From Patescibacteria group bacterium (lineage in GTDB: Bacteria; Patescibacteriota; Microgenomatia; UBA10105; UBA927): a stretch of DNA of 64,000 bases. Every line of letters begins with the position of its first letter. Positions within the stretch are counted from its first letter, which is position 1. Below are positions 4,918 to 62,785 of the stretch, in pieces. A program made the translations under genes and the position numbers. Under the pieces are notes generated by a model, which saw only the letters and a program-made list of their open reading frames with translations, searched no databases and was not told the origin of the DNA. The stretch spans positions 9,088-73,087 of the forward strand of contig JAMCTH010000010.1 of the NCBI GenBank assembly GCA_023379025.1. The letters run 5' to 3'.

Positions 4918-4980
4918 ACGCACCTCGTATAGGCTTGCCTCCGGCTCAGGGAGCATGATAGCATTCGGTTAAGACAAACC

Positions 4981-5322
4981 ATGAAACGACTGCGAGTGGA
5001 ACGATTTGCAAAAACCCCGACATCCTACCCCTCACCCATGATACGGGAGCTCTTTGGGGCAATCCTGTTGCTGAAATCCCCGAAGGAAGCATCCGATTTT
5101 TTCCGCGATTTACTCACCATGGCAGAACTCAACGAATTCACCAACCGCTGGCAGATGGTCAAAATGCTCTCCCAGGGCAAATCATATGAAGACATTGCAA
5201 AAAATCTGCATGTATCAACAGCCACAGTCACCCGTGTCGCCTACTGGCTGGAGCATGGTTTCGGCGGCTATAAAGAGATAGCAAAACGTCTCTATCGCAT
5301 CAAAGAAAAACCCTTTGAATAA
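4981..5322 (+). CDS. TrpR-like YerC/YecD family DNA-binding protein
   Basis: 113 aa; LTMAELNEF...KMLSQGKSYEDIAKNLHVSTATVTRV helix-turn-helix region characteristic of the Trp-repressor YerC/YecD family. Confidence 0.75.
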   Translation: MKRLRVERFAKTPTSYPSPMIRELFGAILLLKSPKEASDFFRDLLTMAELNEFTNRWQMVKMLSQGKSYEDIAKNLHVSTATVTRVAYWLEHGFGGYKEIAKRLYRIKEKPFE

Positions 5323-5406: not shown

Positions 5407-5435
5407 TTGACATGAATGTATTACTATGTTAATAT
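5407..5435 (+). promoter_or_regulatory. sigma70-type promoter (TTGACA-17 nt-TAATAT) in AT-rich palindromic region
   Basis: TTGACA at 5407-5412, 17-nt spacer, TAATAT at 5430-5435, embedded in AT-rich palindromes (TTAATATATTAA, TATTAATAGATTAGTATATTAA). The next plus-strand gene starts at 5820, implying a roughly 385-nt leader. Confidence 0.5.
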
Positions 5436-5819
5436 ATTAACGTATTAATAGATTAGTATATTAAAACTGTTTTCTATGATCAGCATCTTGACCTACCAGC
5501 TTCTTATATCGTTTCCATCCGGTTCTCCCGGTTTGTTTCTGCACGTCCACCATCATACGCACTAACACTCCTGCGCGTGGTTAAAGCGAGAAAAATCATT
5601 CCGCTTCCGTTTCCATACATCACCGTTGTCATCCGTTTTCTCCCTTTTCCCATTCGTAGTGACCTTTCATTAAGAAATGAAGTATCAAAAAATTCTTGAA
5701 TTATTACTACCGAATATGACACCCATGACAAGCGTGCAAAAAGAAATTGACCGATTCGAGGAGTTACGACCAGGCATCGTGGCAGCCTTCGGAAAAAGAT
5801 TGAAGACGTATTAAACCGT

Positions 5820-7653: not shown

Positions 7654-8865
7654 ATGAAGCTCCTGGATGATATTGATGCGCTCCTGGTTACCAATCCCAC
7701 GAATATCCGCTACCTTACCGGATTTGTAGGGACTGCGTCCGGAGAACGGGAAGCGTATGTACTGATCACCCGTGACGAGGCATTCTTCCTTACGAGCGGT
7801 TTGTATGTCGAAGAAGCATCATCACTGCAATTGTTAGATTGCTCTGTTGTTAAATTATTACAAACAACGAAACCTCTTCGTATTATCGAAATCCCGATAG
7901 GCAGCTCTTTGGGGAACAAACTTTCTGAGCTTATCGACACAAAAAAACACGTGTCTACCAGGATATCCCAAAAACGGTTTCTTCTCGGGTTTGAAGAGTC
8001 AAATCTGACGGTTTCGGAGCTCAATAACCTTACCGAATCGCTCCGAGGAGTCAAACTCGTTCCAACGACCGATAGAATAGAACTGCTCCGCCGGATTAAA
8101 CGGGCCGATGAGATCCAGCAAATTGAACTCGCCGCAAAAATCACCGACCAGTGTTTCTCGTACATCCTCAAGAGAATCCGTCCGGGCATCACGGAAGCGC
8201 GTCTTGCCTGGGAAATCGAAAGTTATCTCAGGCTGCGTGCCGGCGATATAGCCTTCTCTCCGATCGTCGCTTTTAACGCTCACTCAAGCATGCCGCATTT
8301 TTCCGTCCTGTCCCAGCGCACCGGACAAAATCAACGCTTAGCGTTGAACTCGTTCACTCCCCTCCGTCGCGGATCGCTCATACTCCTCGATTTCGGCGCG
8401 CGGGTCAACGGCTACTGCGCAGACATGACGCGCACGGTGTTTCTGGGACCCCCGAAACCGGAGTGGGCAAGCGCATACAAAACGGTCCTTGCCGCCCAAC
8501 AGGCCGCACTTACTTACCTCCGATCCTGTTATCATGTAACGGAACATGATAACAAATCTTCTCGTGCGGGCCGTGTGACTATATCGGGGAAAAAGGCGGA
8601 CGCAAGTACCAGAGAAATCATTACTGCCGAAGGCTTCCCTCCCTATCCGCATAGCCTCGGTCACGCGGTCGGGCTCGATGTTCATGAGATGCCCCGGCTG
8701 ACGGTTTCCGCTGACGTGACACTTGAGCCGGGAATGATCTTCTCCGTTGAGCCCGGCATCTATGTTTCCGGAAAGTATGGCATTCGCATCGAAGATTTGA
8801 TACTCTTGAAGAGTACTCGCTTGGAGATTCTGTCCAAATCTCCCAAAACACCACTCGTCCTATGA
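7654..8865 (+). CDS. M24-family Xaa-Pro aminopeptidase/dipeptidase
   Basis: 403 aa. C-terminal pita-bread domain with metal ligands (DFGARVNGYCADMTRT, HSLGHAVGLDVHE, EPGIY, IEDLI). Contains an AT-rich segment in the N-domain and an in-frame 10-12-aa insertion (CYHVTEHDNKS) encoded by a palindrome. Confidence 0.85.
   Translation: MKLLDDIDALLVTNPTNIRYLTGFVGTASGEREAYVLITRDEAFFLTSGLYVEEASSLQLLDCSVVKLLQTTKPLRIIEIPIGSSLGNKLSELIDTKKHVSTRISQKRFLLGFEESNLTVSELNNLTESLRGVKLVPTTDRIELLRRIKRADEIQQIELAAKITDQCFSYILKRIRPGITEARLAWEIESYLRLRAGDIAFSPIVAFNAHSSMPHFSVLSQRTGQNQRLALNSFTPLRRGSLILLDFGARVNGYCADMTRTVFLGPPKPEWASAYKTVLAAQQAALTYLRSCYHVTEHDNKSSRAGRVTISGKKADASTREIITAEGFPPYPHSLGHAVGLDVHEMPRLTVSADVTLEPGMIFSVEPGIYVSGKYGIRIEDLILLKSTRLEILSKSPKTPLVL
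8527..8556. repeat. 28-nt hairpin palindrome tgttatcatgt-aacgga-acatgataaca, copy 1 (in-frame inside the M24 peptidase gene)
   Basis: Perfect 11-bp arms and a 6-nt loop. Near-identical copy at 19457-19487 with a compensatory T:A to C:G pair. Confidence 0.7.
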
Positions 8866-10085
8866 AATCAGTACAACCATTAAAAGGTTTTCGGGATATA
8901 TTACCTCCCGATGCCAAAAAACGGCAGTGGGTGAAAGCTGTCATGGTCAAAACTGCCGAGCGCTGGGGCTATGAGCCTATTGAGACGCCGACGCTTGAAC
9001 ACCTTTCCCTTTTCGAGGGGGAAATCGGTGAAGACGAAAAACTATTTTTCGGATTTCGTGATCAGGGCGGCAGAGACGTAGCGCTTCGGTATGACCAGTC
9101 AGTTCCAACATGCCGGTATGTTGCAAATAACCTTTCTGCAATTACGCTCCCCTTCCGCAGATACCAATTCCAAAACGTATTCCGGGCTGAAAAACCGCAA
9201 AAAGGGAGGTACCGAGAATTTACCCAGTTTGACACGGATATTTTCGGCGTCAAAGATGCCACAGCCGACGCAGAAGTGATCGCCCTTAATCTCGATACGT
9301 ACTTAAAAATTGGCTTCAAAAAACCGCTCATCATCTTCAACAACCGTGATCTCATGAAGGGCATCCCCTACCAGGCTATTGTTGCGATCGATAAGCTCAA
9401 AAAAATCGGTGAAGACGGAGTCATTGAGGATATGATCGGAAAAGGTATCGATAGATCAAAAGCCAAAGAATATCTCCGTCTCGTTCAAAGCATAAAGCCG
9501 GATCAAACAGTCAATACCATCATCACGTACCTCGAAAAGTCCGGCTTTGACAGCCAATTTTATAAATTTGAGCCGACGCTAGCCCGGTCATTTTCCTATT
9601 CCCAGGGTCCTATCTGGGAAATAATCATTGAGGACTATACCGTCGGATCTGTCGGAGGCGGCGAACGCTACGACGGCATGATGAAGCGGTTAACTGGCCT
9701 GGATATCCCGGCAACAGGTATCGCCTACGGCTTCGACCGGACAGTGGAAGCGGCGGACCAACTTGGTCTCATCCCGCAAACGGCGATTACGCAGATCTTA
9801 GTCACCCTCTTTTCACCTGAGCTTCAGGAACACATGCTTCTTTTAGCAAAAACCCTACGCGGAGCCGGTATCAGTACGGAGCTATACCCGGATATGAATG
9901 CGAGGATTGATAAACAGCTTAGATATGCTGACCGAAAGGGTATTCCCTACGTTCTTATCCAGGGGCCGGATGAATTGACCAAAAATGTCCTCATCCTCAA
10001 GGATATGCGCACAGGAAAACAGGAGGAACTCTCTATGAACGAGGTGGTAGAGAAACTCAAAACGAACCGAACCGAGTTTCCATGA
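8862..10085 (+). CDS. hisS: histidyl-tRNA synthetase
   Basis: 407 aa. LKGFRDILP motif 1, RYDQSVP, and RYQFQNVFRAEKPQKGRYREFTQFDTDIFG motif 2; class II aaRS core plus anticodon-binding domain. Confidence 0.92.
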   Translation: MKSVQPLKGFRDILPPDAKKRQWVKAVMVKTAERWGYEPIETPTLEHLSLFEGEIGEDEKLFFGFRDQGGRDVALRYDQSVPTCRYVANNLSAITLPFRRYQFQNVFRAEKPQKGRYREFTQFDTDIFGVKDATADAEVIALNLDTYLKIGFKKPLIIFNNRDLMKGIPYQAIVAIDKLKKIGEDGVIEDMIGKGIDRSKAKEYLRLVQSIKPDQTVNTIITYLEKSGFDSQFYKFEPTLARSFSYSQGPIWEIIIEDYTVGSVGGGERYDGMMKRLTGLDIPATGIAYGFDRTVEAADQLGLIPQTAITQILVTLFSPELQEHMLLLAKTLRGAGISTELYPDMNARIDKQLRYADRKGIPYVLIQGPDELTKNVLILKDMRTGKQEELSMNEVVEKLKTNRTEFP

Positions 10086-19074: not shown

Positions 19075-19456
19075 AGAATTGACAAGCCTTTACGTCCGGG
19101 CCAAAAAATCACCTGAAAGCGAATTTACGTAATCTAAAGTTTTTTGGCCCCTTAAATCCCATAGTATATCACTGGCTCTCCAACTAGACAAGCTTACCGG
19201 ATGCGAGAGATACGGTTTTGACTCCAAAAAAAACATTGTGGCGGAAACCTGATTTTTTAGAATCGGGAAGCAAAAAATGCCGGGCTATGTTTGTGATATC
19301 CCGTCCTTCAAGTTCATATGTTGATGGGACCCCGAGAATTGCACTTCAGGAAGAAGGTACCGGCGGCCTAAATAAATTCAAAGCTAAGCTTTAAATTTGC
19401 TCCGCGGATATTCGAGAAACATGAATATCCAGCCGAAATTTTCCGCTTTACGTATT

Positions 19457-19487
19457 TGCTATCATGTAACGGAACATGATAGCAAAA
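19457..19487. repeat. 30-nt hairpin palindrome tgctatcatgt-aacgga-acatgatagca, copy 2 (intergenic)
   Basis: Second copy of the 8527-8556 palindrome. Stem can extend to 13 bp (tttgctatcatgt/acatgatagcaaa). Sits in the roughly 500-bp non-coding stretch 19075-19571. Confidence 0.7.
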
Positions 19488-19571
19488 AAGCGCGATCGCA
19501 AATACGGAAAGTACCGAAACAAAAAAGGGCTAAATAAACGGATCCATTACCTAGTAATCTTCCCTTTGAAA

Positions 19572-20009
19572 TTATCCCGGCCAGGAATATGACAGCATAT
19601 CGTTTAATTGTAATTCCTGCATTTCATCAAACGCATTGACAAAAATGACAAGCATCGGTATCCGCGATCGCCTCTGACTTTCGTATAAAAGCTGTTTACA
19701 CATGTGACACGAATAACAAAATCTGCCCTTCTTCAGTTTCTCATTACTGGTTACTGCAATCGCCATGATCTCCTGCTCGCCATGGGCCGCAGCGTGAGCG
19801 AGCGCGGCCTGCTCTGCGTGGAGTGTGAGGGAATAGGTGTCGGAAAAATATTGTGCTGATGAATACATATTGCCCTTTCGGGTTAAAACCGCCGCAGCAT
19901 ATACGGTCTCTGTGCCGTGTGGATACGGACGTTTTAAGGCAGCTCGCGCCTCGGCGATTAACTTCATCTTAATCTGAGGTGTAATCGATATCATGATTCT
20001 CTTATACAC
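19572..20009 (-). CDS. cdd: cytidine/deoxycytidylate deaminase-family protein
   Basis: 145 aa; HAEQAAL (H/C-A-E zinc motif) and CYSCHMCKQ (PCxxC) typical of cytidine deaminases. Confidence 0.75.
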   Translation of the reverse strand: MYKRIMISITPQIKMKLIAEARAALKRPYPHGTETVYAAAVLTRKGNMYSSAQYFSDTYSLTLHAEQAALAHAAAHGEQEIMAIAVTSNEKLKKGRFCYSCHMCKQLLYESQRRSRIPMLVIFVNAFDEMQELQLNDMLSYSWPG

Positions 20010-62437: not shown

Positions 62438-62785
62438 CTACGGGCACACATGATTGTGTACCCCGGAAAGGAGGCGGAACAAAGATCGGCAATTGCAGTT
62501 AAAAGCGTGTGGCCCCCTCTTTTTACGTAAAAAAGGGGGGGATACGAGGCAGGGGATCCCGAGCTCCAGCGAGGGAAATCGGACTTAGCAGAGAGAAAAC
62601 CGTAGGTTGTCTCTCCTAAAGCATCTGCGGAAACCCCTTGGCGGCACTTCCCGCCAGAAGAAAAACCGGAAAACGCTTTCGGTAACGGGAGCACTAAATG
62701 GCTTTTCACGAAGTCCGTATCTTCTTTATCATCACCATTCTGTCTTCTTTTCCCAATAATTGTTCGGGCATACTGGAGGTACTAT

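Follow-up and report, generated by a model that had tools for sequence, protein, structure and literature searches.

What maintains a perfect palindrome in frame within a conserved enzyme gene? The question is raised by a 64,000-nucleotide stretch of contig JAMCTH010000010.1 from a Patescibacteria group bacterium (assembly GCA_023379025.1), referred to here as the window, in which pepP, the gene for an Xaa-Pro aminopeptidase of the M24 family, harbors such a palindrome and an intergenic region contains a second copy. The original prediction, made from the letters alone, interpreted the pair as a small mobile element or a structured RNA motif. Our analysis leads to a different assignment. With somewhat more confidence than doubt, we regard the palindrome as the cognate operator-type dyad site of a homodimeric regulator of the TrpR/YerC family (HisR-like) in Patescibacteria, as predicted from sequence comparisons. 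This link to TrpR-family regulators is absent from the original prediction. Gene regulation in Patescibacteria is barely known, and these bacteria have no genetic handling yet. The outcome is a testable pair, comprising a TrpR/YerC-like family specific to the candidate phyla radiation (CPR) and its probable 30-bp site.

The palindrome and its family

The window contains the following copies:

8527..8554, no strand assigned: palindrome copy 1, TGTTATCATGT-AACGGA-ACATGATAACA, 11-6-11, in frame in pepP, encoding CYHVTEHDNK
19455..19486, no strand assigned: palindrome copy 2, TTTGCTATCATGT-AACGGA-ACATGATAGCAAA, 13-6-13, intergenic

Copy 1 consists of perfect 11-bp arms around a 6-nt centre. The palindrome, its frame within the peptidase gene and the second intergenic copy are as first described, although the end then given, 8556, lies 2 nt past the palindrome. 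The encoded peptide corresponds to residues 292–301 of the M24 peptidase, and the start of hisS follows 308 nt downstream. Copy 2 reads tttgctatcatgt-aacgga-acatgatagcaaa, with 13-bp arms and the centre oriented as in copy 1, and is located 86 nt beyond the stop codon of a cytidine-deaminase-like gene. A 22-nt core, TATCATGTAACGGAACATGATA, is identical between the two, and arm position 9 is T..A in copy 1 and C..G in copy 2. No third match with up to 3 mismatches occurs in the 64-kb window. A chance origin of the pair was rejected, since none of 100 shuffled controls gave any match to the palindrome. An upstream extension of 8.4 kb contains no further full copy, and the known 72 kb of this genome thus have two copies in total.

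When one genome per species was scanned for the exact 20-mer, 10 copies came to light in four metagenome-assembled genomes (MAGs), with 2–4 per genome and unrelated flanks. These comprise a Gottesmanbacteria MAG, a Patescibacteria-group MAG and two MAGs labelled 'Gammaproteobacteria' with CPR-like loci. A metagenome scan, in which the centre bases were left free and the hits were then filtered on the G...C flank signature, extended the family to at least 78 distinct contexts of the same dyad in public Patescibacteria contigs; the counts of sites, centres and contexts given throughout are among the matches listed. The 78 sites align gap-free to the consensus (T/A)TG-Y-TATCATGT-N6-ACATGATA-R-CA(A/T). 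Arm symmetry exceeds chance up to position 12 and no further, which defines a 12-6-12 unit of 30 bp with arms (T/A)TGYTATCATGT around a 6-bp centre. The centre is AACGGA/TCCGTT in 37 sites, TTTAAA in 18, TCTAGA in 8 and AACGGT in 4, with ACTAGT, ATGCAT and others among the rest. Perfectly palindromic centres account for 6 of the 14 types and 31 of the 78 sites, and all copies in one genome share their centre. Within the window and the eight loci L001–L008, no degenerate copies were found, the sites being either perfect or absent. Our literature searches found no description of this palindromic site.

The Trp-repressor-family gene and its probable sites

At three loci (L001, L005 and L007), the palindrome stands on both sides of a gene encoding a protein of 146–150 aa, which Pfam assigns to Trp_repressor (PF01371). 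Its nearest matches are YerC/YecD TIGR02531 (37.7 bits, against an equivalog cut-off of 42.2) and the PDB entries 3KOR, 3FRW and 3G1C, annotated as 'putative Trp repressor'. The protein contains the helix-turn-helix of PF01371 and no catalytic domain, and the long family to which it belongs carries an extra C-terminal segment of ~45 aa. By tblastn, 20 loci combine the long gene with an adjacent palindrome, at protein identities as low as 32–40%, and the named homologs all belong to Patescibacteria or Gottesmanbacteria. A recognizable copy lies ~8 nt before the ATG in ~17 of the 20 loci at a constant spacing, with one arm decayed in several, and 15 of the 17 printed lineages read ...ACATGATA[AG]C[AG]T-N6/7-ATG. 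A second copy follows ~5–8 nt past the stop codon in most loci. Ten contigs contain both flanking copies, ~490 nt apart and usually in inverted orientation, and the centres of each pair are always the same up to orientation. Furthermore, the centre class tracks the protein clade and the variation of its recognition helix, with the helix-turn-helix residues SFTT, GLET and SLTT. Gene order around the long gene is kept within clades. Three of the loci, L001, L003 and L005 (CAYRFA01, CAYMYO01), are labelled 'uncultured Gammaproteobacteria' and possess the palindrome, the long TrpR-like gene and a downstream thrS, as in the Patescibacteria MAG L007; this label is probably wrong.

YerC has been identified as HisR, a histidine-dependent repressor of the TrpR family, in which repression depends on small molecules. 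Often preceding hisR, the HisR operators are palindromes of 20 bp, cacTTTA-N6-TAAAgtg; their consensus is lineage-specific and their centre spans 6 bp (PMC9413887). The core of the present site, atcATGT-N6-ACATgat, exhibits the same 7-6-7 layout. The PF01371 protein, the site directly upstream of the regulator gene and the lineage-specific consensus are likewise common to both systems. In contrast to HisR and TrpR operators, the arms here are built on ATCATGT and extended to 12 bp, instead of TTTA or GNACT, and a second site directly follows the stop codon. The sites also occur inside coding sequences and between convergent genes, and their neighbours are genes for aminoacyl-tRNA synthetases and tRNA modification rather than for his or trp biosynthesis. 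The protein itself differs in its C-terminal extra segment and in scoring below the YerC equivalog cut-off.

In the proposed mechanism, each arm of the DNA duplex would receive one helix-turn-helix of the dimer, following the 7-6-7 geometry of HisR operators. Ahead of the regulator gene itself, the right arm together with the T that follows it would form an extended −10-like box, TGnTAnnnT, with the ATG 7–8 nt later, at the position expected for the start of a leaderless transcript. Binding would then shut off a leaderless-type promoter, and autorepression at the long TrpR-like gene is reasonably well founded. For the intragenic and convergent copies, including the two in the window, two roles are conceivable. 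Protein bound within pepP, or after the cytidine-deaminase-family gene, may be a roadblock to the pepP–hisS transcript or an internal operator serving hisS, perhaps with an amino acid as the signal; its role may instead be architectural and insensitive to position.

The genomic placement of the family is diverse. Forty sites lie between tandem genes, 14 between convergent and 5 between divergent genes, and 6 inside long open reading frames (ORFs). Many abut stop codons, lying 1–15 nt past them, and some are located 18–65 nt upstream of genes for TyrRS, AlaRS, GluRS and MiaB-like enzymes. The neighbouring genes encode TyrRS, AlaRS, GluRS, ThrRS, HisRS, TrpRS, two MiaB-like enzymes, TrmD (twice), RtcB, a 2'-5' RNA ligase, RsmI, two cdd-family proteins, FolD and others. 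MiaB-like (L027, L109) and Ser_hydrolase (L019, L050, L111) neighbours recur across centre classes, which suggests that they are conserved targets. Six different aminoacyl-tRNA synthetases are present among ~100 neighbouring genes; because CPR genomes are rich in translation genes, the enrichment of an aminoacyl-tRNA synthetase regulon is suggestive only. The candidate targets are hisS, thrS, tyrS, alaS, gltX, trpS and tRNA-modification genes.

The window has a TrpR-family gene of its own, accompanied by two sequence features:

4954..4963, minus strand: isolated half-site CATGATAGCA (minus-strand reading: TGCTATCATG), same sequence as the copy 2 arm
4981..5322, plus strand: Trp_repressor-family (YerC/HisR-like) gene; PF01371, 75 bits; 113 aa by ORF, 94 aa in the public gene call
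5407..5444, plus strand: promoter-like TTGACA-17-TAATAT overlapped by the palindrome tatgttaatatattaacgta, just 3' of the TrpR-family gene; read from the sequence, not from a scan

The 113-aa product is one candidate binder of the window palindromes. The half-site ends 17 nt upstream of the ATG of its gene, and the pattern T[AG][TC]TAnCATG occurs in the window only there and in both palindromes. Since an estimated ~0.5 hits are expected by chance, and the extra 8.4 kb upstream contains another lone half-site of the same pattern, this proximity is modest evidence only. In related contigs, TGTTAACATG arrays occupy the position equivalent to 5407..5444. In relatives, TGTTAACATG half-sites, arranged as 10-4-10 or overlapping, directly flank the short TrpR paralog on both sides and also occur close to the pepP and hisS ends.

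Several observations weigh against the operator assignment. No long TrpR-like gene was detected within the known 72 kb of this genome, and the resident 113-aa paralog, a candidate binder only, is associated elsewhere with similar half-sites in the 10-4-10 layout. Consensus scans show no promoter, and no terminator, at either window copy. Convergent (14/78), intragenic (6/78) and stop-abutting sites are odd for promoter operators. The fully conserved asymmetric AACGGA centre and the near-absence of mixed arm states depart from what half-sites evolving independently would predict. Finally, all loci were retrieved by an arm search, by which the arm conservation is partly built in.

In-frame copies and alternative explanations

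The genes at copy 1 are arranged as follows:

7654..8865, plus strand: Xaa-Pro aminopeptidase (M24) gene, host of copy 1; PF00557 Peptidase_M24 and Creatinase_N
8862..10085, plus strand: histidyl-tRNA synthetase gene (hisS), next gene downstream of copy 1

The stop codon of pepP overlaps the start of hisS, and the window peptidase is identical to a public protein (P0001) labelled 'Patescibacteria group bacterium'. Alignment with orthologs bears out the in-frame insertion proposed originally. The segment from DMTR to HSLGH spans 72 residues in the window protein and 56 in insert-free orthologs, which are thus 16 aa shorter, while other palindrome-bearing orthologs are 11 aa longer than the insert-free baseline. 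In the AlphaFold2 model, pLDDT falls below 50 at residues 295–307, directly after a long helix (269–294), and the model fits a tolerant surface loop at this site. The loop had been placed between the last two metal-ligand blocks; in the alignment it instead follows the second Asp ligand block (D257) and precedes the His block (H337).

At the same codon position, the pepP gene of L129 contains a perfect TGCTATCATGT-ACCGTT-ACATGATAGCA, that of L130 a copy with two arm mismatches, and those of L131 and L132 more decayed dyads. The signature CYHV(T/P)xHD is present in P0009, P0010, P0012, P0022, P0025 and L113. The loop copy is recorded in the window, L129, L130, L113 and P0010/12/22, and at least seven orthologs share the loop position, ~310 nt ahead of hisS. 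The orthologs are ~50% identical as proteins, yet the palindrome arms are nucleotide-identical and the flanks unrelated. The constraint therefore acts on the DNA and not on the peptide. Accordingly, the earlier claim of selection on the stem rather than on the peptide stands with respect to the nucleotide dyad, whereas selection on an RNA stem is not required. The pepP copy argues for long vertical retention under constraint. A neighbour-joining tree addressing a single origin versus repeated insertion in pepP was star-like and uninformative.

In trpS (L008), the copy occupies the linker that leads to the C-terminal tRNA-binding domain. This linker copy is shared by 5 orthologs of 77–87% identity and absent from equally close orthologs; the TrpRS linkers are too diverged for a clean empty-site comparison. 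An rsmI-like gene also holds an in-frame copy. The intragenic copies all encode YHV(T/P)...HD because only one reading frame is stop-free in both palindrome orientations, and for the same reason the in-gene survivors would be in-frame loop insertions. A probable protein-binding site that forms an in-frame 10-codon insert in conserved enzymes, with its nucleotides kept while the protein diverges, is unusual.

Other inserts were observed in the same pepP loop of other lineages. The recurrent types are 'VKAHLP' (P0002/37/42/51), 'GRALNS' (P0005/14/45), 'SRPGL' (P0013/31/61) and 'GPGPV' (P0027/33/34), and the DNA of three of these inserts (L133–L135) contains short GC-rich dyads, such as CAAGGGCGGGCCTTG. 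The loop position is a hot spot for palindromic inserts. In addition, pepP orthologs contain, in their N-terminal half, other perfect in-frame palindromes of 30–38 bp, AAGGnnnnnCC...GGnnnnnCCTT (L133 10261–10290 and 19852–19882; L134 10267–10299 and 10639–10674; L130 3363–3398; L129 1832–1869). Both pepP and TrpRS linkers (P0149) repeatedly show peptides such as SHLAKPGETF and RSHLAKPQGETL, which we suspect to be encoded by the AAGG-type palindromes. In general, these genomes seem prone to palindromic in-frame inserts.

New copies of the 30-bp dyad seem to arise as whole modules of 10 codons. It is possible, though doubtful, that the dyad is a copyable and self-symmetrizing operator module, duplicated into new locations including protein loops and kept there through binding by the CPR TrpR-like protein. 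If so, it would represent a REP/RAYT-like partnership (see below) built on a helix-turn-helix protein, or a parS-like marking of the chromosome peculiar to Patescibacteria.

A minimal non-autonomous mobile palindrome appears unlikely. It would resemble repetitive extragenic palindromic (REP) sequences, MITEs (miniature transposable elements with inverted repeats) or an in-frame invader of the type of Rickettsia palindromic elements (RPEs), and unknown machinery would copy it into intergenic DNA and tolerant protein loops, with the TrpR-like gene as partner, as the REP-associated tyrosine transposase (RAYT) is for REPs. Compared with bare orthologs, the insert amounts to ~10–11 codons, close to the element's own length, the flanks of separate copies are unrelated, and intermediates between perfect and absent copies are missing from the window and L001–L008. 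Presence is patchy among TrpRS orthologs that are 83–87% identical, other palindrome families (AAGGnnnnnCCTT...) are in frame in the same genes, and convergent sites outnumber divergent ones (14 versus 5). The palindrome–gene–palindrome layout is like REP–RAYT–REP, and REPs are likewise short dispersed palindromes with a single-copy gene between two copies and a bias to gene 3' ends. However, exact copies number only 2–4 per genome, rather than tens to hundreds, and the bracketed 146-aa protein is a helix-turn-helix protein without a catalytic domain, not an HUH Y1 transposase. The GTAG head of REPs is lacking, and copies are in frame inside genes. Neither a direct repeat nor a target-site duplication is visible at the flanks, and no related transposase was seen, so that the 30-bp unit also departs from MITEs. 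The pepP copy occupies the same codon position in orthologs of ~50% identity despite unrelated flanks, and the conserved gene order around the TrpR-like gene within clades likewise disfavors mobility. The REP/MITE-like element of the original prediction is not upheld by these findings. RPEs share with the present site the tolerated insertion of palindromic DNA in frame into surface loops and linkers of conserved housekeeping proteins. They are 100–150 bp long and high-copy, whereas the unit here is 30 bp, low-copy and nucleotide-conserved across deep divergence; RPEs are not known to have an associated DNA-binding protein.

We consider it quite unlikely that the palindrome is a chromosome-level protein-bound site on the model of parS/ParB, Noc or MatP, for which gene position would be irrelevant and the gene of the binder would adjoin the sites. 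The placement is indifferent to context, being convergent, tandem, divergent or intragenic; sequence conservation is very high at low copy number; the sites bracket the gene of the putative binder; and the ~45-aa C-terminal extension of the long family could mediate higher-order contacts. The parS system similarly comprises few nearly invariant palindromes per chromosome, some in coding sequence and some beside the binder gene, but differs in protein fold and site sequence. Moreover, TrpR-family proteins are known as repressors that depend on small molecules (PMC9413887), and the upstream site, at a constant spacing from the ATG, overlaps the −10-like box, which is a classic autorepression layout.

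The other original proposal, a structured RNA hairpin acting in the transcript through stability, processing or protein binding, is very unlikely. The predicted hairpins of both window copies fold far better than shuffles, with z-scores of −4.0 to −6.0, and many copies immediately follow stop codons. The compensating T-to-C and A-to-G exchange first noticed between the two window copies is genuine and recurs across the family: at arm position 9, 47 sites have T·A, 24 have C·G and 7 are mixed (Fisher p = 4e-13, relatedness ignored). The AACGGA class alone includes 15 T·A, 16 C·G and 6 mixed sites, with both states within single genomes. At arm positions 9 and 12, changes on both sides are more numerous than in any of 500 shuffles; the covariation is limited to these positions and, at position 12, mostly follows lineage. 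Palindromes become symmetric through intrastrand template switching (quasipalindrome mutagenesis), and compensatory-looking changes within a palindrome do not alone prove RNA structure. Between the trpS copies of L008 and L136, the 6-nt centre is exactly inverted with the arms unchanged, and the asymmetric centre is found in both orientations (AACGGA versus UCCGUU) in the same gene context in trpS, in pepP and downstream of the TrpR-like gene. The repeated exact flips in pepP and trpS therefore indicate that hairpin-mediated events occur here. The symmetric T·A/C·G changes and the centre flips would be best explained by occasional hairpin extrusion with template switching inside the palindrome. 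Thus, the covariation is real but does not require selection on an RNA stem, and self-correction of the palindrome could be its source. The occurrence of the loop in both orientations at orthologous positions speaks against an RNA; palindromic centres, which an RNA loop does not require, are present in 31 of the 78 sites, and ribosomes would unwind the copies in coding sequences. The stem is preceded by a T-run and followed by an A-run, the reverse of the intrinsic terminator order, and an Rfam scan of the window gave no family matching the palindrome. Palindromic centres together with orientation-independence therefore point to a double-stranded DNA target of a symmetric dimer, in line with the operator assignment.

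A site-specific recombination site of the dif/lox type, served by a tyrosine recombinase encoded elsewhere, is hardly credible. In its favor, Xer sites have the same arrangement of 28 bp as 11-6-11, the centre is common to all copies of a genome, as strand exchange requires, and the pair around the TrpR-like gene is usually inverted. However, no recombinase gene stands beside any copy among the annotated neighbours, the palindromic centre classes would abolish directionality, and essential genes (hisS and others) lie between the two direct copies of the window, yet their order is conserved. Several copies with perfectly symmetric arms occur per genome, and the arms are unlike the XerC/D arms of the dif consensus. 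Two further groups of candidates were rejected. A CRISPR repeat, a terminator and a known RNA are contradicted by the lack of an array, the T-run on the wrong side of the stem and a negative terminator scan. The two copies as attL and attR of an 11-kb island are contradicted by the pepP frame running through copy 1 and by the order pepP-hisS-EamA-L31, which is kept in relatives.

Other features of the window and related loci

The gene adjoining copy 2 is the following:

19572..20009, minus strand: cytidine-deaminase-family gene, 3' end facing copy 2

In L003, a distant cdd-family gene is likewise followed by the same palindrome. The surroundings of copy 2 (19075–19571) form an unusually long intergenic region of ~500 nt with low GC content and short ORFs only, containing one weak promoter-like match on the minus strand at 19191–19163. 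A glmS ribozyme/riboswitch (RF00234, 51 bits) at 62493–62716 on the plus strand is the sole Rfam match in the window and is unrelated to the palindrome.

Two loci on the same contig (DATKGN010000011.1), L004 900–1150 and L006 7440–7690, carry the palindrome within a duplicated unit of ~130 nt, where it is flanked by direct repeats of ~25 nt, CCACCTCAAACGTCGTCAyGCC. An unrelated conserved element of soil metagenomes has the same arm, TTATCATGT...ACATGATAA, with flanks of its own, ccaaactgcaag ... gcaaatccaagg, and A/T-rich centres (L010, L021, L025, L031, L038, L055, L058, L078, L086, L100 and L106).

Related contigs share the gene order dnaB, metallo-beta-lactamase, two unknown genes and the TrpR-like gene, then pepP-hisS-EamA-L31. 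A conserved non-coding stretch, CTCCATCATAGCCTC...GCGCGTGGC(C/T)GAGGCGAGAA...TTCCCTCCTCTACCATTCGCAGG, follows the short TrpR-like gene at a distance of ~200 nt, beyond the TTGACA promoter-like box and the half-site array (window ~5540–5690; L130 1280–1400; L133 6110–6230; L134 8230–8350; L135 7590–7680). Rfam gave no match to the stretch, not even at E ≤ 1. The genes that it precedes include, in relatives, those for a CntK_N-like protein and histidine ammonia-lyase, and the stretch could be an undescribed leader or riboswitch-like RNA.

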